The notes beneath the pieces were generated by a model, which was given only the letters and a program-made list of their open reading frames with translations, ran no database searches and had not been told where the DNA came from. Positions 1 through 32,441 of a stretch of 32,441 nucleotides of DNA are shown here, one piece after another. The first letter of the stretch is position 1; the number at the start of each line of letters is the position of its first letter. The stretch comes from a virus. Its lineage: Duplodnaviria > Heunggongvirae > Uroviricota > Caudoviricetes. The position numbers and the translations under genes are program-made. Location: the IMG/VR virus record IMGVR_UViG_2541047895_000011, one strand, 5' to 3'.

Positions 1-1011
1 TTATAACGTCACTCCGCCTTTTAGTGGATTCAGAGCGACGGCATTTTGCAGGTAGTCAGGCGCAAGGTGCGCATAGGCCATCGTCTGCTGAATGCTCGCA
101 TGTCCCAGAATCTGTTGCAGTGCGATTATATTGCCCCCGTTCATCATGAAATGGCTTGCGAATGTATGCCGCAGGATGTGGGTTGCCTGATTGGGTGGTA
201 TATCAGGTTTCACTCTGCGTAAAATCCCGCAAAATTTCTCATAATCAACTTTGAATAATTTGGCGCTTGCCTCCTCTTTAACTTTTTTCTCCAGTTCCTC
301 AGAAATCGGCACGGTTCGCTTTTTACCGTTTTTGGTTTTCAGGAAGGTAACCCTGCAATTTGTAATCTGTGCTGGTTTTAGCGTGGCAACTTCCGTCCAT
401 CTTCCTCCAGTGCTCAGACATAAAAGCGCGACAAGTAAGTCATCACCAGCCAAAACATTTAACAGTTTTTCGATTTCTGCTTTTTCCAGGAACGTCATTT
501 CAGGGTTGGCCTCCGCCAGTGGCGGCAGTCCGTGAATTGGGTGTTGCCCGGAAAATTCATCCAATTGAATTAATTTTGTGAACATGCCGGATAATCGGTA
601 CATGTCACGGTTTATCGTTGCGGCACTGATACCATCACGTAGTCGTATGGAACGATAATCCATCAAAGCCCTTTTGCTCATCCGGCTCACTGGTATATCA
701 CCTATGCCGCTGATGGTTTTGAGTAGATGATTAAACTCTTTTGTTCCATGCTCGTGGTTTTGCCCGTGATATTTCCACCAGATGTCCAGCAACTCACTCA
801 AAGTTCGGCGGTCTGCTCGCTGGCCTCCCCATTCTTTCTGACTGGCATTGGCGATTGTGTATCGCTCAAATGCTAGTGCTTCAGCTTTTCTTTCGAATTT
901 CCTGCGGATGCGTTTTCCGTCGCGACCGCGAGGTCTAATGTCCACTTCATAGCGACCATCATCGAGCTTCTTAATTGCCATAAGAAAGCCCTCCGGCGCT
1001 GTATTCACCAT
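1..1011 (-). CDS. int: Phage integrase (tyrosine recombinase), P2 Int-like
   Basis: 336-aa ORF; C-terminal region has the tyrosine-recombinase pattern (HILRHTF ... LGHASIQQTMAYAHL with the terminal Tyr); lies immediately downstream of the C repressor on the same strand, as in the P2 C-int operon. Confidence 0.9.
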   Translation of the reverse strand: MVNTAPEGFLMAIKKLDDGRYEVDIRPRGRDGKRIRRKFERKAEALAFERYTIANASQKEWGGQRADRRTLSELLDIWWKYHGQNHEHGTKEFNHLLKTISGIGDIPVSRMSKRALMDYRSIRLRDGISAATINRDMYRLSGMFTKLIQLDEFSGQHPIHGLPPLAEANPEMTFLEKAEIEKLLNVLAGDDLLVALLCLSTGGRWTEVATLKPAQITNCRVTFLKTKNGKKRTVPISEELEKKVKEEASAKLFKVDYEKFCGILRRVKPDIPPNQATHILRHTFASHFMMNGGNIIALQQILGHASIQQTMAYAHLAPDYLQNAVALNPLKGGVTL

Positions 1012-1050
1012 CTTGGTAGCAAATGGTGAAAATGTAATCTTTATATAGAG

Positions 1051-1344
1051 TTAGCCAATCCTTTTCGCGGAGTGGTTGGACTCTGTTGACTCTGGCCCAA
1101 TGTGCGCGAGAGCCGGTGCGATTTGTCCTGCGTCCGGCGCGGTTTTATCTGTCATAAGCCATAGAGCATATTTTTGGAATGTGGGATGCATAGTGATTTT
1201 TAGCAAAGCTGTGCCACCGGGTTCAAAGTTTCCTCCTTCATATTTTTTAAGTGTGCTTAGCGGTAACTCTATGATTTCACAGAATTTTGATTGGCTTAGC
1301 CCTTCAGCCTCACGCAAGGCCTTAATCTTTTCGCTTAATTTCAT
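1051..1344 (-). CDS. C: Immunity repressor, P2 C-like; C-terminus conserved (GQIAPALAH), N-terminal HTH region divergent
   Basis: 97-aa ORF divergent from cox across a 121-bp switch region; the C-terminal motif matches my recollection of P2 C, the N-terminal part does not, suggesting a different immunity specificity. Confidence 0.75.
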   Translation of the reverse strand: MKLSEKIKALREAEGLSQSKFCEIIELPLSTLKKYEGGNFEPGGTALLKITMHPTFQKYALWLMTDKTAPDAGQIAPALAHIGPESTESNHSAKRIG

Positions 1345-1465: not shown

Positions 1466-1753
1466 ATGAGGGTACCATATATGGACGCTGAAAATTATGT
1501 GATTCAGTATCCGCTTGATGCGGTTCATGTGGATAAATTTGCTGATTTATTAGGGAAGCCAAAGACAGCCGTCAGTGAAATGGTGAAGGCAAATAAATTA
1601 CCAATTATTGAATTGCGTGATCCTTGCAAACCGAAGGCTCGTGCCGGTGAAAAATGGGTTTTCATTCCTGAGTTTAATCGCGCTGTACGTGAGGCGTTTT
1701 ATAACCGACCGGTTGAACAGCGTGATGCATGGCTTTTGTGGATGGGGTTGTGA
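1466..1753 (+). CDS. cox: Cox-like excisionase / transcriptional regulator
   Basis: 95-aa ORF, first gene of the rightward early operon; shares the P2 Cox pattern as I recall it (KLP.I...DP....RAGE.WV..P.WN ... RD.WL.W.GL). Confidence 0.75.
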   Translation: MRVPYMDAENYVIQYPLDAVHVDKFADLLGKPKTAVSEMVKANKLPIIELRDPCKPKARAGEKWVFIPEFNRAVREAFYNRPVEQRDAWLLWMGL

Positions 1754-5930: not shown

Positions 5931-6977
5931 ATGGCGGTAAAAGTTGTTGATCTTTTTTGCGGTGCTGGCGGTTTAACGCACGGCTTACATTTGGCCGGAT
6001 TGGACGTTGTCGCAGGCATTGATTTAGAAGGTGAGTGTCGTGTTGCATACGAAAGCAATAATGATGCACTTTTTATTGAAAAAGATATATCTCTGGTGAC
6101 AAAAGATGAAATCGAAAATCTTTTTGAAGGGGCAAGTGTTAAAGTATTGGCCGGATGTGCACCTTGTCAGCCATTTTCTAAATATACTCAGGGAAAAGAT
6201 AAAAAAAATGATAAAAAGTGGCCGTTATTATATGAGTTTGAACGTTTAATAAAAGACACGAAACCAGAAATAGTTACAATGGAAAACGTTCCTGATGTGA
6301 CAAAACATTCTGTCTATGATGATTTTTATAATACCTTAATAGCATTGGGTTATTATGTTTGGGCAAATAAGATTGAATGTGTAGATTTTGAGGTTCCGCA
6401 AAACAGAGTGAGGCATGTATTACTCGCATCTAAATTTGCGCCGATTTCTCTGATGAAACCACAAACATCGGTAAAGCTGACAGTTAGGGATTGCATTGGT
6501 AATTTACCTTCGATTGAAGCGGGACAAGCAGATCCAAAAGACCCTCTCCATAAGGCGAGTAGATTGAGTGAAATTAATCTCAAACGTATTCTACATTCAA
6601 AACCGGGGGGGACATGGAGGGATTGGCCTGCTGAATTAATCGCTTCATGTCATGCCAAGAAAAGTGGGCAGGGATATGCCAGTGTTTATGGTCGTATGTC
6701 TTGGGATAAACCGAGTCCAACGATAACTACACTTTGTTATGGTTTTGGTAATGGACGTTTTGGTCATCCCGAGCAGCATCGTGCAATCTCACTTAGGGAA
6801 GCAGCATTACTTCAAACGTTTCCTGTTACATATTCATTTACCCAACCGGGCGAGCCGATCAAAATGAAAAATGTCGGGCGTATGATAGGTAATGCTGTTC
6901 CTGTAAACTTAGGTAAAGCGATTGGTCTTTCAATAGTACATCATTTGAAAGAGTTTCACCCCGCCGCTCTTAAATAA
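5931..6977 (+). CDS. DNA (cytosine-5)-methyltransferase, Dcm family
   Basis: 348 aa with motif I (DLFCGAGG), catalytic PCQ motif IV (GCAPCQPFS), ENV motif VI (MENVPDV), QNRVR motif VIII and a C-terminal GNAVPV motif; GGAG Shine-Dalgarno 6 nt upstream of the ATG; AT-rich compared with the phage backbone. Confidence 0.9.
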   Translation: MAVKVVDLFCGAGGLTHGLHLAGLDVVAGIDLEGECRVAYESNNDALFIEKDISLVTKDEIENLFEGASVKVLAGCAPCQPFSKYTQGKDKKNDKKWPLLYEFERLIKDTKPEIVTMENVPDVTKHSVYDDFYNTLIALGYYVWANKIECVDFEVPQNRVRHVLLASKFAPISLMKPQTSVKLTVRDCIGNLPSIEAGQADPKDPLHKASRLSEINLKRILHSKPGGTWRDWPAELIASCHAKKSGQGYASVYGRMSWDKPSPTITTLCYGFGNGRFGHPEQHRAISLREAALLQTFPVTYSFTQPGEPIKMKNVGRMIGNAVPVNLGKAIGLSIVHHLKEFHPAALK

Positions 6978-7675
6978 GCCTGAGTATCAAGATAAGTTTG
7001 TATATTTTCAAGGATGCAGTTGAGATAATGAAAAACTTCATCCTTCATTTCTGTTAGTGTATCAATAGATGTATCTCTGCCTTTGTTTCTAAATGATTCA
7101 GAACCATGAGCAAGGTCGTTTCTGGCCTTTTTTATTGGAAGTAAATTGCAACCATTTCGCGTTATTTCTGAATCTGTATCTGCTGAGAAGCCATATTTTT
7201 CAGCGACTTCTCTAATTTTTCTAGCATCAACATTTCCAGAAAATAACGGATTTTTATTTGATTGGATAAGTTTTTTGTGAGCGTTTAGCCACTCTTTAAA
7301 TATAACTTTTGCAATGTTCCCTTGTGAGAAATCTATTTTCCCATTTGGTGATTGTAAACTATGAAATGCTACTCTTGTAAGGTTTTCATTTACAGTGTCT
7401 GCACATAATGATTCATTAGACATTAAAACATTATGAATGTCTTCTATTGCATTGGAAATGGTTGCTTCAATGAGATTGTACAATATAATAAATGCATTAG
7501 CCTTTAAAATATGAGTCATGTCAATATCAATGGGTTGTTGTATAGGCGCATCGCTTGTATTCTCTTTATAGACTAGAGATGGTTTTTTGTTTATTAGTAA
7601 CTGAATGAATGAGAAGTATTCATTAATATCTTGCATTCTTTCTTGGAAAAGAATTTTACTTGTCATCTCCTCCAT
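6956..7675 (-). CDS. HEPN-like protein (candidate Rx4H motif, RNDLAHG), putative RNase effector
   Basis: 239-aa ORF, second gene of the leftward operon, 10 nt downstream of the DUF262 gene; near the C-terminus, KKARNDLAHGSESF fits the HEPN Rx4-6H signature; AT-rich. Domain call is by eye and not profile-verified. Confidence 0.55.
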   Translation of the reverse strand: MEEMTSKILFQERMQDINEYFSFIQLLINKKPSLVYKENTSDAPIQQPIDIDMTHILKANAFIILYNLIEATISNAIEDIHNVLMSNESLCADTVNENLTRVAFHSLQSPNGKIDFSQGNIAKVIFKEWLNAHKKLIQSNKNPLFSGNVDARKIREVAEKYGFSADTDSEITRNGCNLLPIKKARNDLAHGSESFRNKGRDTSIDTLTEMKDEVFHYLNCILENIQTYLDTQAYLRAAG

Positions 7676-7685
7676 TTACTTGGCC

Positions 7686-8831
7686 TCACTCCATATTTTC
7701 ATCTTCATTTTCATCTTCGTCGACAATATTTTCTGGAATGTCTTTCCCAAGCAACTTGTTTTTTACATATTCAATGCGTGCTTTAACTTTGGGTTTAGAG
7801 TTGCTGGCATCTGAACGTGTGTGCGTGATAAACTCTTTCGAGTTGATCCAGTCATCAATATTTTTAGGAACTAAATTGGGTTCTTCCTCTAGTGCTAATG
7901 TTGCACCGACGGCAAGAGCTTCGAAACGAATCCTAGGAACAGTGGTGGCGTTTTTCACCTTTCTGAAACCATTTGGGAAATGTGTATTAATGAATTGGCA
8001 CATTTTATGAAATTTTTCCGCCAGCATAGCTGCGTTTTCATCTGTATATTCGGCATTTTTACGTTTTAAATAGGTTGTAAGAAATTCATCAACGCTTTTT
8101 CTGAAATCAAGATATTCTTCAGTGTAGGCAAAGTAGCGTAGTGCCAATTCTGGATATTCAGAGCGACGTTTTCTTGCATCTCCCAAAGGACAGATGCTAT
8201 GAAATAGAGGATCTTCGGAAATTTCATTGATAAATGCAAGGAATGGCCCATCATGGCTACCTTGCCGTTGTTCCATTGTTGTTAGTTTTTTTCCGCCAGT
8301 ATTCAGACGGTCAAAAATTTCCCTTCTTGTCTCTTCGTCACAATGTTCTGTAAGTTCAATCATTCGAATAGTTTTTCTATCAAAACGTAGGCGACGGGGA
8401 GTACTGAAATCAGAATATTTAAAACCATTGGCTGTGACTAATTTCTGCAGGCCTTCAAGAGTTAGTTTGTTATTGGTAAATTGGTGTAGGGTTCTTATTC
8501 GTTGGCTACCGTCAACAATTTCAAGTCTACCTTCATTTTCACCTGAACCAATATCGGCAACGAATATGTAAGGTATAGGAAGATTTAAAAGCAGAGATTC
8601 AATGAAACGGGATTTTTGCTTGTTGTTCCAGATAAACTCCCTTTGGTAGTCAGGTATAAAAAGCTCTGCCTCATCTTCTTCAAGACCATTCTGAAATTTG
8701 TCCACAATAACACTTATCGGGAACTCACGTATTTCATGGTCAGTGATTTTTTGCATTTCAACTATGCTTTGATCTAAAAGCTCCTTTTCTTCTTTAGTTT
8801 TTGGGGTATGTTCTGCTTTTTTTCTCGCCAT
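7686..8831 (-). CDS. DUF262 / ParB-like (GmrSD N-terminal-type) protein with acidic C-terminal tail
   Basis: 381 aa; N-terminal region has the DUF262 hallmarks (IPDYQREFIW followed by EIVDGSQRIRTL, a DGQQR-type motif); no recognisable DUF1524/HNH module; C-terminus is DEDENEDENME; first gene of the leftward operon starting near cos. Confidence 0.75.
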   Translation of the reverse strand: MARKKAEHTPKTKEEKELLDQSIVEMQKITDHEIREFPISVIVDKFQNGLEEDEAELFIPDYQREFIWNNKQKSRFIESLLLNLPIPYIFVADIGSGENEGRLEIVDGSQRIRTLHQFTNNKLTLEGLQKLVTANGFKYSDFSTPRRLRFDRKTIRMIELTEHCDEETRREIFDRLNTGGKKLTTMEQRQGSHDGPFLAFINEISEDPLFHSICPLGDARKRRSEYPELALRYFAYTEEYLDFRKSVDEFLTTYLKRKNAEYTDENAAMLAEKFHKMCQFINTHFPNGFRKVKNATTVPRIRFEALAVGATLALEEEPNLVPKNIDDWINSKEFITHTRSDASNSKPKVKARIEYVKNKLLGKDIPENIVDEDENEDENME

Positions 8832-23555: not shown

Positions 23556-23776
23556 GTTGTATAAGCTCTGGTGTGAGATTACATATCTATGGCACAGAGT
23601 AAAGCCTAATCTGACAGGCCGCTCTGTGTCTGGAGTAGATTTTAGTAAAGCATTATTTCATTAGTGCAAATTCTAAACAATACATTTTATGTATATGATA
23701 TCCTGCGGACTTTAATGACTTGGTTTAGGCTAACCAGATAACACTGAAGGAATATTTTTGATAATTAAGGTGCGGT

Positions 23777-24370
23777 ATGTTTACTAAGCGACGATTAAAA
23801 AATATTAACTGGGAGGCAAGTTCAGTGATTCTTGCTATGGTTCTCTTTGTTGGAAATATATTTTATACAAATCATCGTGATGATATAAGCATGGAGGCTG
23901 AGAGAGACAGTATCAGAACAATGTTTGCATATGAAATCGCTAATAACCATCGCGCTCTCACTTTTCTTGATAAAACGAGAAATATTGGCTTTGACGAAAA
24001 TTCGGAGCATTTTGTTGGCGAGCCTTTTGCCATTAATGTCGAATCATTAGGAGGGCCTCGCTTACAGATTGCATTAAACCAGACTGATAAAGTTTTTAAA
24101 GCCTACTTCAGTGAATTAAGTAAACTTGATAAAGAGGATGTTACTCTTCTTATGGACTATTACCATGAGCAAAGCATCCTGCTGGAGTGTGTAAAATCTA
24201 CGTTAGAGAAGATGAAAAGCAATAATGATATTAAAGTTGATATTGATGGTTACTTATTAGAAGAACACTTCATGAATGAGTTTAATCTTTCTAATATTTT
24301 GCTTAAACGCTATAGCCATTTGTTGTCACAACACCTCAAAAAACCTGAAACAAAAGATTTACATAATTGA
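23777..24370 (+). CDS. Hypothetical membrane-anchored protein at the P2 Z/fun cargo position
   Basis: 197-aa ORF in an AT-rich island between G and FI; N-terminal hydrophobic segment (SSVILAMVLFVGNIFY); a terminator hairpin follows downstream; no motif I recognise. Confidence 0.6.
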   Translation: MFTKRRLKNINWEASSVILAMVLFVGNIFYTNHRDDISMEAERDSIRTMFAYEIANNHRALTFLDKTRNIGFDENSEHFVGEPFAINVESLGGPRLQIALNQTDKVFKAYFSELSKLDKEDVTLLMDYYHEQSILLECVKSTLEKMKSNNDIKVDIDGYLLEEHFMNEFNLSNILLKRYSHLLSQHLKKPETKDLHN

Positions 24371-24577
24371 TGATCTGCTAATGGTTATTCATGGGATAAC
24401 TATGTTTTATATGTAATCCAACTCAGATGAATTATTGATTCTGGATAATAACCGCAGAGCGGCATATACCCTGACAGGCAAATGTCCGCTTCTTGCTCAA
24501 AGCAGACTGTCAGATTTGATAACTTTTGGGTTATGTAAATTGTCAGTCGGAAAATGAGTGTGTGCAAATCAGGACAG

Positions 24578-24600
24578 GCGGGCGAATTGCCCGCTTTTTC
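24578..24600 (+). terminator. Rho-independent terminator downstream of the Z/fun-position ORF
   Basis: Hairpin GCGGGC-GAATT-GCCCGC followed by TTTTTCTTT. Confidence 0.65.
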
Positions 24601-24699
24601 TTTATCTGTTGTTTCATCCCCTGACCAGCCAGCTCAAATAGCGTCTCATGCTTTGCACAACAGAAAATAGTTGCACCCATTAACCACGGAGTTAAACGG

Positions 24700-29839: not shown

Positions 29840-31002
29840 TGCTGGATGCGCTGACATTTGATGCAGGCAGTACGCTGACGCCGGATTATATGCTGATGCT
29901 CGACAGCAGGGATATTACCGGCAATATCAGCGACCGTCTGATGAGCATGACCCTGACCGATAACCGGGGCTTTGAGGCTGACCAGCTTGATATTGAACTG
30001 AACGATGCCGACGGGCAGGTCGAGCTGCCGATTCGTGGCGCTGTCCTGACGGTGTATATCGGCTGGAAAGGTTTTGCCCTGGTATGCAAAGGGAAATTTA
30101 CCGTTGATGAGGTTGAACACCGGGGCGCGCCGGATGTGGTCACCATCCGCGCCCGGAGTGCAGATTTTCGCGGGACGCTCAATTCCCGCCGTGAAGGCTC
30201 ATGGCATGCCACCACACTCGGTGCGATTGTTGAGGCGATAGCCTCCCGTAACAAGCTGGAAGCCAGTGTTGCTCCGTCACTGGCCGGAATTAAAATCCCG
30301 CACATCGACCAGTCGCAGGAGTCCGATGCGAAATTCCTGACCCGCCTTGCTGAACGCAACGGCGGTGAGGTGTCGGTAAAAATGGGAAAACTGTTGTTTC
30401 TCAAAGCGGGGCAGGGGGTGACGGCCAGCGGTAAAAAAATCCCGCAGATTACCATCACCCGCAGCGACGGCGACCGTCATCATTTTGCGATTGCTGACCG
30501 TGGAGCTTACACCGGCGTAACGGCAAAGTGGTTACACACCAAAGACCCGAAGCCACAAAAGCAGAAGGTAAAACTGAAACGCAAAAAGAAAGAGAAACAC
30601 CTGCGCGCACTGGAGCACCCGAAAGCGAAACCGGTCACGCAGAAGAAAGCGCCAAAAGTACCGGAAGCGCGCGAAGGTGAATACATGGCCGGTGAGGCTG
30701 ACAATGTTTTTGCCCTGACCACGGTATATGCCACGAAAGCGCAGGCCATGCGCGCCGCTCAGGCGAAGTGGGATAAACTGCAACGGGGTGTAGCGGAGTT
30801 CTCCATCAGTCTGGCTACTGGTCGGGCAGATATTTACACGGAAACGCCGGTCAAAGTGTCAGGTTTTAAGCGCGTCATAGACGAGCAGGACTGGACAATC
30901 ACTAAGGTGACACACTTTCTGAATAATAGCGGCTTCACGACGTCCTTAGAGCTTGAGGTCAGGCTTTCTGATGTGGAGTACGAAACAGAAGATGATGAGT
31001 GA
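29839..31002 (+). CDS. D: Tail protein D-like (late tail/baseplate protein)
   Basis: 387 aa, identical in length to P2 D; follows U. Confidence 0.9.
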   Translation: MLDALTFDAGSTLTPDYMLMLDSRDITGNISDRLMSMTLTDNRGFEADQLDIELNDADGQVELPIRGAVLTVYIGWKGFALVCKGKFTVDEVEHRGAPDVVTIRARSADFRGTLNSRREGSWHATTLGAIVEAIASRNKLEASVAPSLAGIKIPHIDQSQESDAKFLTRLAERNGGEVSVKMGKLLFLKAGQGVTASGKKIPQITITRSDGDRHHFAIADRGAYTGVTAKWLHTKDPKPQKQKVKLKRKKKEKHLRALEHPKAKPVTQKKAPKVPEAREGEYMAGEADNVFALTTVYATKAQAMRAAQAKWDKLQRGVAEFSISLATGRADIYTETPVKVSGFKRVIDEQDWTITKVTHFLNNSGFTTSLELEVRLSDVEYETEDDE

Positions 31003-31083
31003 TGTTTATTATTTATCTATTTGTTTTATAAGGATAAATTAACTAAAATGGCACCATCAACAAAACCGGAAGAGGTGCTCGCG

Positions 31084-31302
31084 ATGTTTCATTGTCCTTT
31101 ATGCCAGCATGCCGCACATGCGCGTACAAGCCGCTATATCACTGACACGACAAAAGAGCGTTATCACCAGTGTCAGAACGTGAATTGCAGTGCCACGTTC
31201 ATCACTTATGAGTCGGTACAGCGATACATCGTGAAGCCGGGAGAAGTCCACGCCGTAAGGCCGCACCCGTTGCCGTCAGGGCAGCAAATTATGTGGATGT
31301 GA
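31084..31302 (+). CDS. ogr: Late-gene transcriptional activator Ogr (Cys4 zinc finger)
   Basis: Track ORF 31021..31302; the ATG at 31084 gives 72 aa (MFHCPLCQHAAHARTSRYI ... CQNVNCSATF), matching P2 Ogr in size and in its CxxC ... CxxxxC arrangement. Confidence 0.85.
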   Translation: MFHCPLCQHAAHARTSRYITDTTKERYHQCQNVNCSATFITYESVQRYIVKPGEVHAVRPHPLPSGQQIMWM

Positions 31303-31313
31303 TCACAAAAATA

Positions 31314-31338
31314 GCCCCTCAGTTGAGGGGCTTTATTT
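31314..31338 (+). terminator. Rho-independent terminator after ogr
   Basis: Hairpin GCCCCTC-AGTT-GAGGGGC followed by TTTATTT. Confidence 0.7.
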
Positions 31339-31430
31339 ATGGTCGATGTGGACGCTATGTGGACAGTGCTTGATATAAATCCATTTATATCATCATGTTA
31401 GGTGCTTTTTTGTGACACCATCCCTGTCTT

Positions 31431-31457
31431 CCCCCACATGATGTGGGGGTTTTTTTT
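31431..31457 (+). terminator. Rho-independent terminator in the attR/host junction region
   Basis: Hairpin CCCCCACA-TGA-TGTGGGGG followed by eight T; about 80 bp upstream of fieF. Confidence 0.55.
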
Positions 31458-31538
31458 ATCCTCAATTTGCCTGCTGCTTAATGCATTGCAGATGATTTGC
31501 TTCCGTTATACTACCGTCAGTTGATAGCGGGAGTATTT

Positions 31539-32441
31539 ATGAATCAATCTTATGGACGGCTGGTCAGTCGGGCGGCGATTGCTGCGACGGCGATGGCTTC
31601 GCTGCTATTGCTGATTAAAATTTTTGCATGGTGGTATACCGGGTCGGTGAGTATTCTCGCCGCGCTGGTGGATTCGCTGGTGGATATCGGCGCGTCGTTG
31701 ACGAATTTACTGGTGGTGCGATATTCCCTGCAACCTGCCGACGATAATCACTCGTTTGGTCACGGTAAAGCTGAGTCCCTCGCGGCGCTGGCGCAAAGTA
31801 TGTTTATCTCCGGTTCGGCACTATTCCTGTTTTTGACGGGTATTCAACATCTGGTATCTCCAACACCGATGACAGATCCAGGCGTCGGGGTTATCGTGAC
31901 AATTGTGGCGCTAATTTGTACGATTATCCTTGTCTCGTTTCAGCGTTGGGTGGTGCGCCGGACGCAAAGCCAGGCGGTGCGGGCTGATATGCTACATTAC
32001 CAGTCTGATGTTATGATGAACGGCGCAATTCTGCTGGCGCTGGGGTTGTCCTGGTACGGCTGGCATCGCGCCGATGCTCTGTTTGCATTGGGGATCGGCA
32101 TCTATATTTTATATAGCGCGTTACGCATGGGATATGAGGCGGTACAGTCATTACTGGATCGCGCATTGCCTGATGAGGAACGGCAAGAAATTATTGATAT
32201 CGTGACTTCCTGGCCGGGTGTTAGCGGCGCTCACGATCTTCGCACGCGGCAGTCAGGGCCGACCCGCTTTATTCAGATTCATTTGGAAATGGAAGACTCT
32301 CTGCCTTTGGTTCAGGCACATATGGTGGCGGATCAGGTAGAGCAGGCTATTTTACGGCGTTTTCCGGGATCGGATGTGATTATCCATCAGGACCCCTGTT
32401 CCGTCGTACCCAGGGAGGGTAAACGGTCTATGCTTTCATAA
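31539..32441 (+). CDS. fieF: Cation-diffusion facilitator, ferrous-iron/zinc efflux pump FieF (YiiP)
   Basis: Track ORF 31497..32441; the ATG at 31539 with a GGAG Shine-Dalgarno gives 300 aa beginning [53 protein letters not shown], which I recognise as enterobacterial FieF; marks the host flank. Confidence 0.9.

Follow-up and report, generated by a model that had tools for sequence, protein, structure and literature searches.

The window (the whole stretch of DNA that was analysed, 32,441 nt) contains a complete P2-like prophage. Its sequence starts at position 1 with the int stop codon (minus strand) and runs up to the host gene fieF. The integrase is of the Wphi type, and 321 of its 326 residues (98%) are identical to those of Wphi Int. 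A cox gene is also present. The Cox binding sites would sit in the P' arm at attL, beyond the window. The last phage gene is annotated as ogrK or ogr in the matching genomes and phages. The coordinates of these and the other features are given in Table 1.

Two predicted hairpins follow ogr. Both have the GC-rich stem and the U-tract of Rho-independent terminators. The first (31313-31332) has an 8-bp stem with 6 GC pairs and is followed by TTTATTT. Its fold has an energy of -16.7 kcal/mol (z = -4.1 against shuffles), and it aligns with the terminator annotated in P2 (NC_001895). The second (31431-31449) has the sequence CCCCCACA-TGA-TGTGGGGG, with an 8-bp stem and a 3-nt loop, and is followed by eight T residues at 31450-31457. 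In a 61-nt context it folds at -19.7 kcal/mol (z = -2.6 against shuffles). A scan of 30900-31700 found three terminator-like sites, compared with 0.8 +/- 0.9 in shuffles, and no promoter-like sites. The T-run ends 81 nt before the fieF ATG (31539). This is the layout given by the first-pass annotation, which placed ogr and its terminator ahead of a second hairpin about 80 bp from fieF.

The P arm of the attachment site lies between the two hairpins. Its coordinates and those of the IHF-like region were transferred from the P2 RefSeq annotation through an alignment of P2, Wphi and the window. The P2 record annotates the ogr terminator, Int P arm, IHF site, core, Cox sites and P' arm. The repeat ATGTGGAC occurs at 31346-31353 and again at 31357-31364, 11 bp apart, and the two copies are candidate Int sites. 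The arm-repeat consensus published for P2-type integrases is tgTGGaCa (PMC3448106). At 31388-31400, TATCATCATGTTA differs by 1 mismatch from the IHF consensus WATCAANNNNTTR and is a putative IHF site. Int and IHF probably bind at this P arm, as judged from these motifs. Phage DNA continues past the ogr terminator for about 80 bp of unique sequence and then for 47 bp that are shared with the host. The first-pass annotation had ended the phage backbone at the ogr terminator. That boundary has to be moved: 31333-31413 is phage-specific and shares homology with the P arm and IHF site annotated in P2, and free phages match the window to 31460.

The prophage carries cargo elsewhere. A block of three genes (5931-8831) lies between replication gene A and the portal gene. 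It encodes a C5 cytosine DNA methyltransferase, a HEPN protein and a GmrSD_N/DUF262 protein, and it looks like an anti-phage defence island. Its position is presumably that of the P2 'old' hotspot. An AT-rich island (23560-24690) separates the tail-fibre assembly gene from the sheath gene, at what we take to be the second P2 cargo hotspot (Z/fun). Its 197-aa ORF matches only phrog_3829 (unknown function); searches of Pfam and PADLOC gave no match. Wphi-site phages have a third cargo position in the gap that separates the P arm from the ogr terminator. It holds a 213-aa hypothetical ORF (WP_000416606.1) in EC16, strain 219 and AHM21C2872I. In EC16, IS150 is also present there.

Table 1. Coordinates of features in the window.
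Feature	Position	Strand	Basis
Tyrosine integrase, Wphi type, acts on att sites	1-984	-	Pfam Int_N and Phage_integrase
cox, excision directionality factor and switch repressor	1466-1753	+	Pfam Phage_Cox, E 1e-23; role from P2 record annotation
C5 cytosine DNA methyltransferase	5931-6977	+	Cargo block
HEPN MAE_28990-like protein	6956-7675	-	Cargo block
GmrSD_N/DUF262 protein	7686-8831	-	Cargo block; matches PADLOC models NsnA and PD-T4-2_A
197-aa ORF in AT-rich island	23777-24370	+	phrog_3829
ogr, late-gene activator, last phage gene, 72 aa	31084-31302	+	Pfam Ogr_Delta, E 1e-21
Predicted Rho-independent terminator of ogr and the F operon (phage)	31313-31339	+	Terminator scan, fold, P2 NC_001895 alignment
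P arm, two direct candidate Int arm-type repeats	31343-31370	+	Alignment with P2 'Int P arm' protein_bind feature
AT-rich IHF-like bending region of the P arm	31374-31405	+	Alignment with annotated P2 IHF site
attR common core, 47 bp	31414-31460	+	Four-way alignment; cpxQ annotation in MG1655
Strand-exchange interval	31414-31440	+	Segregation of the loop polymorphism
Predicted second terminator, duplicated copy of the cpxP/CpxQ Rho-independent terminator	31431-31457	+	Scan, fold, K-12 annotation, four-way alignment
Host-only DNA, native fieF upstream region	31461-31538	+	Empty-site identity
fieF, host CDF metal exporter	31539-32441	+	Pfam Cation_efflux and ZT_dimer

Core of attR

We searched 5426 complete E. 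coli genomes by megablast with positions 31250-31700. All 5426 match the window from 31414 onward. In non-lysogens, including K-12 MG1655, homology starts only at that position; in K-12 it falls on fieF and on cpxQ, which encodes a small RNA. In free P2-like phage genomes the homology runs from gene D across ogr and ends at 31460. These phages include Wphi, P24B2, fiAA91-ss, R18C and P2-like phages grown on Yersinia and Salmonella. Host and phage homology thus overlap at 31414-31460, the core of attR.

The empty-site and attL comparison proposed by the first-pass annotation for finding the core repeat was run as a four-way alignment. It used MG1655 attB, the attR of the window, the attL of lysogen 2015C-4136CT1 and Wphi attP. 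It gave a single 47-bp block with the four expected combinations of flanks, GACACCATCCCTGTCTTCCCCCACATG[A/C]TGTGGGGGTTTTTTTTATC. The attR core in the window is GACACCATCCCTGTCTTCCCCCACATGATGTGGGGGTTTTTTTTATC, and it occurs there once. It is identical to Wphi attP at 47/47 positions and to the attL core. It is also identical to attB of A-allele empty sites, and K-12 attB differs by a single loop base.

The window begins at the int stop codon, and attL lies outside it. The int end of strain 2015C-4136CT1 is 100% identical to window positions 1-1331, and its attL carries the identical 47-bp core. The prophage of this strain (NZ_CP027550.1, 3663170-3694285) is also 100% identical at 31250-31700, yet it is 134 bp shorter overall.

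The chromosomal site is empty in MG1655 and SF-173. In both strains cpxP is directly upstream of fieF, a gene order that the first pass had given for K-12 and that proved correct. Lysogens have the order cpxP-attL-int ... ogr-attR-fieF. The host part of the window is 100% identical to the empty site of SF-173. The attR junction is carried by about 790 of the 5426 genomes, and in 623 of these ogr directly adjoins the junction, as it does in the window. The Wphi integration class is thus present in roughly one-seventh of complete E. coli genomes.

The P2 locI core, AAAAAATAAGCCCGTGTAAGGGAGATT (27 bp), corresponds exactly to the annotated attP core position in the P2 record. A search that allowed up to 3 mismatches did not find it in the window, in keeping with the first-pass statement that the P2 core is absent. 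The P2 core is unrelated to the window core, so the target site differs. The suspected specificity other than locI is that of Wphi, as judged from the core (47/47) and Int (98%).

From these alignments we conclude, with a probability of about 93%, that the stretch is an ordinary attR of a Wphi-type P2-like prophage, with a 47-base core that copies the 3' end and terminator of CpxQ. The partner attL was read in another strain, with the 134-bp difference in prophage length. The right prophage-host junction does lie upstream of fieF, as first annotated, and the 47-bp core (31414-31460) replaces the ogr terminator as the right boundary of the prophage. Integration of Wphi at cpxP-fieF was already known. 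Wphi attB has been placed at MG1655 position 4104392, and L-413C has the same core (PMC3448106). Prophage Wphi1 of E. coli W is listed at cpxP-fieF (PMC3032704). The finding is ordinary in this respect, and the current understanding of site-specific recombination is unchanged by it.

The 17-mer GTTAGGTGCTTTTTTGT was scanned over 596 Gb for lysogens of other species. This pattern was too short and gave chance matches only, in unrelated taxa. None of the matches continued into the core.

Side of strand exchange

Base 31441, in the loop of the second hairpin, is polymorphic among empty sites (A in SF-173, C in K-12). Every phage attP and every P'-linked copy that we read has A. With C-loop queries of 111 and 112 nt the alleles were inseparable by identity band; queries of 76 and 77 nt with a strict E-value separated them. 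The 76-nt attR query (Wphi-type P arm, C loop) matched 790 genomes, 154 of them at 100%, many of which may be clonal and not independent events. The 77-nt attL query (C loop, ECCWS199-type P' arm) matched 421 genomes, with a best identity of 98.7% and none perfect. The 112-nt attL query (C loop, window-type P' arm) matched 530, with a best identity of 99.1% and none perfect. Neither C-loop attL query gave a perfect match that would place C at attL, and the identity bands allow a rare C with a second mismatch.

Four lysogens were read on both sides (ECCWS199, JX4-T, G6/7 and strain 219). All four have A at attL and C at attR. Their Int and D proteins carry different accessions, and three different P' arm sequences are represented among them. 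Sequence to the right of the exchange is phage DNA at attL and host DNA at attR. The exchange is therefore located to the left of 31441, within 31414-31440. It follows that host DNA makes up at least the loop base, descending stem, T-run and all downstream sequence of attR, and that the matching 3' part of CpxQ at attL is supplied by the phage in lysogens. Wphi-type lysogeny rewrites the 3' end of host CpxQ in this way, and in K-12-type hosts the C of the terminator loop becomes A at attL. No variation was seen in the left 27 bp of the core in any sequence read, which limits how closely the crossover can be placed. The natural A/C polymorphism provides a free in vivo mapping of the crossover side.

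These alleles also bear on where the phage ends. The junction could be placed between the two terminators, with the phage ending just after the ogr terminator and the second hairpin being purely the host cpxP terminator, without duplication. That placement accounts for the identity of the second hairpin and all downstream DNA to the empty site. It is refuted by the attP sequences of free phage genomes, which have the same hairpin, and it also conflicts with the P-arm DNA at 31333-31413 and with the second copy of the hairpin that lysogens bear at attL. We regard it as scarcely credible. The second terminator could instead be wholly phage-derived, with host DNA only from 31461. The core is indeed present on the phage, and since both alleles are A in the window, its sequence alone is uninformative here. 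The C-allele lysogens speak against it, however. They show the host C at attR and the phage A at attL, so at least 31441-31460 is host-derived, and a wholly phage-derived terminator is very improbable. A phage origin of this terminator had been named in the first pass as a result that would overturn its junction. It holds only insofar as the hairpin is also on the phage, inside the core; the loop base and everything to its right are host-derived in attR.

The reading as an ordinary attR implies the following steps. The phage tyrosine integrase would recombine attP with attB within the core, to the left of 31441, and integration would duplicate the core. The attL copy would complete CpxQ and the cpxP terminator, with its 5' part from the host and at least the loop, descending stem and U-tail from the phage. 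The attR copy would be a 5'-truncated CpxQ remnant, and its terminator would now lie between the phage late genes and fieF. This terminator may insulate fieF. Together, attR and attL would be the substrate of excision dependent on Int, Cox and IHF.

The sequence of the core suggests candidate positions for cleavage by Int. The core of a tyrosine recombinase usually consists of two short inverted sites flanking a 7-bp spacer. An inverted repeat, GACA-CCATCCC-TGTC (GACA-N7-TGTC), lies at 31414-31428 and is the stem of the small internal hairpin of CpxQ in the predicted fold. It starts 50 nt past the second arm repeat, the same distance as the GCCC...GGG inverted repeat in the P2 core. By its layout it may represent the core-type sites of Int.

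We also considered that the loop base might lie within the overlap region, where heterology would block integration. This was rejected, as C-allele hosts are lysogenised and the alleles segregate cleanly to attR and attL. Lysogens make up ~154 of ~1080 C-allele genomes and ~636 of ~4340 A-allele genomes, which are rough counts that depend on how BLAST seeded partial matches. Similar lysogenisation of both alleles fits a loop base outside the overlap region.

Some genomes retrieved by these queries differ in structure. ECCWS199 contains a prophage remnant of ~1.9 kb with the order cpxP-attL-int-truncated C-ogr-attR-fieF. Both att sites and int are retained. At least six further genomes are among the best matches for both the attR and the attL C-loop queries. 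In one of these, EC21Z-063, the attL-attR spacing is the same ~1.8 kb as in the ECCWS199 remnant. The divergent attR junctions of EC21Z-014, CAVP776 and AHM21C2872I differ only in the P arm. Within the chromosome of CAVP776, a P arm and core are followed by a different P' arm and int, much as in attP, and the G-run of the hairpin lacks 1 nt. A tandem or nested P2-like lysogen may account for this junction.

CpxQ as the target gene

CpxQ is processed by RNase E from the cpxP 3'UTR and forms the non-coding arm of the Cpx response to envelope stress (PMC9438474). The MG1655 annotation places cpxQ at 4106330-4106387, immediately after cpxP. The core corresponds to nt 15-58 of this 58-nt sRNA and 3 nt beyond it. 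Within this part lie the U-tail and two hairpins, the small internal one and the terminator. Nucleotides 1-14, UUUUCCUUGCCAUA, belong to the host alone and include C11, which is required for pairing with cfa mRNA (PMC6755755). In lysogens, the complete 58-nt CpxQ is retained at attL. A functional copy would need all 58 nt behind cpxP, together with the 5' seed and the context for RNase E processing. The remnant at attR has phage DNA in place of nt 1-14 and is not a functional copy by that standard. The core rebuilds the sRNA and the cpxP terminator, which explains its length. By annotation and alignment, Wphi attB is the 3' two-thirds of the envelope-stress sRNA CpxQ. The first-pass annotation had placed the prophage in or next to the cpxP-fieF intergenic region. 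It does lie between these genes, but the site is not plain intergenic DNA.

The partial CpxQ at attR or attP might be expressed by read-through of the ogr terminator. The product would be a shortened, CpxQ-like RNA that binds Hfq and serves as a regulator or sponge. In favour of this, 44 of the 58 nt are preserved, among them the terminator hairpin and U-tail. The ogr terminator also has an interrupted T-tract (TTTATTT), and CpxQ is prominent in Hfq RIL-seq during lambda infection (bioRxiv 10.1101/2024.10.31.621285). Expression nevertheless appears improbable to us: the scan of 30900-31700 gave no promoter-like site of its own for the copy, and CpxQ nt 1-14 are missing, including the C11 needed for cfa pairing (PMC6755755). 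A target-gene 3' end carried by an integrating element usually keeps the gene intact, and this leaves nothing further to explain. We likewise think it unlikely that the CpxQ-derived core is more than a passive landing pad, with a read-through RNA of this kind perturbing the Cpx circuit during phage development.

Rfam contains no CpxQ family. Rfam model RF02628 (Hrs1, Hfq-regulated sRNA 1) matches the cpxQ locus on the opposite strand (window 31391-31457, minus). It scores 32.9 bits on the truncated window copy and 41.4 bits on K-12 cpxQ, both below the gathering score of 56.4. Hrs1 looks as if the reverse complement of CpxQ had been modelled.

Among searchable papers, we found none that links CpxQ with a phage attachment site. 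In these papers the Wphi site appears only under the name cpxP-fieF or as a coordinate. The site was mapped ten years before CpxQ was described. The overlap of CpxQ with the core can be read directly from present annotation and is a minor addition rather than a discovery. With it, CpxQ joins the small RNA genes (cyaR, rybB, ssrA and tRNAs) that serve P2-like phages as landing sites.

Comparison with known phages

The closest known system is Wphi (Peduovirus Wphi; AY135739, NC_005056). It has the identical 47-bp core, an Int with 98% identity and the same chromosomal site. Near-identity with the window extends to its ogr terminator, P arm and IHF-like region. There are a few single-base changes in the P arm, and the P' arm of a close lysogen diverges beyond about 10 bp from the core. 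The window prophage also bears other cargo genes.

P2 attP has a similar layout, with ogr, its terminator, the direct repeats of the Int P arm (TGTGGAC), the IHF site, the core, the Cox sites, the P' arm and int. The alignment of P2, Wphi and the window holds across the terminator, both TGTGGAC repeats and the AT-rich IHF region, and then breaks down totally at the core, where the 27-bp P2 sequence is unrelated.

The choice of an RNA gene as target is shared with other P2-like phages. According to the genome paper on E. coli W, rybB and cyaR are occupied by P2-type prophages and ssrA by a non-P2 element (PMC3032704). In phage 186 (tRNA-Ile), Fels-2 and SopE-phi (ssrA) and the P2-like prophages at rybB and cyaR, the phage core likewise duplicates the 3' end of an RNA gene. 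A long core of this type leaves the gene intact after insertion in 186-type and other P2-like phages (PMC3448106; table in PMC3032704). CpxQ differs from these targets in being a 3'UTR-derived sRNA processed by RNase E, rather than a tRNA, a tmRNA or a free-standing sRNA gene.
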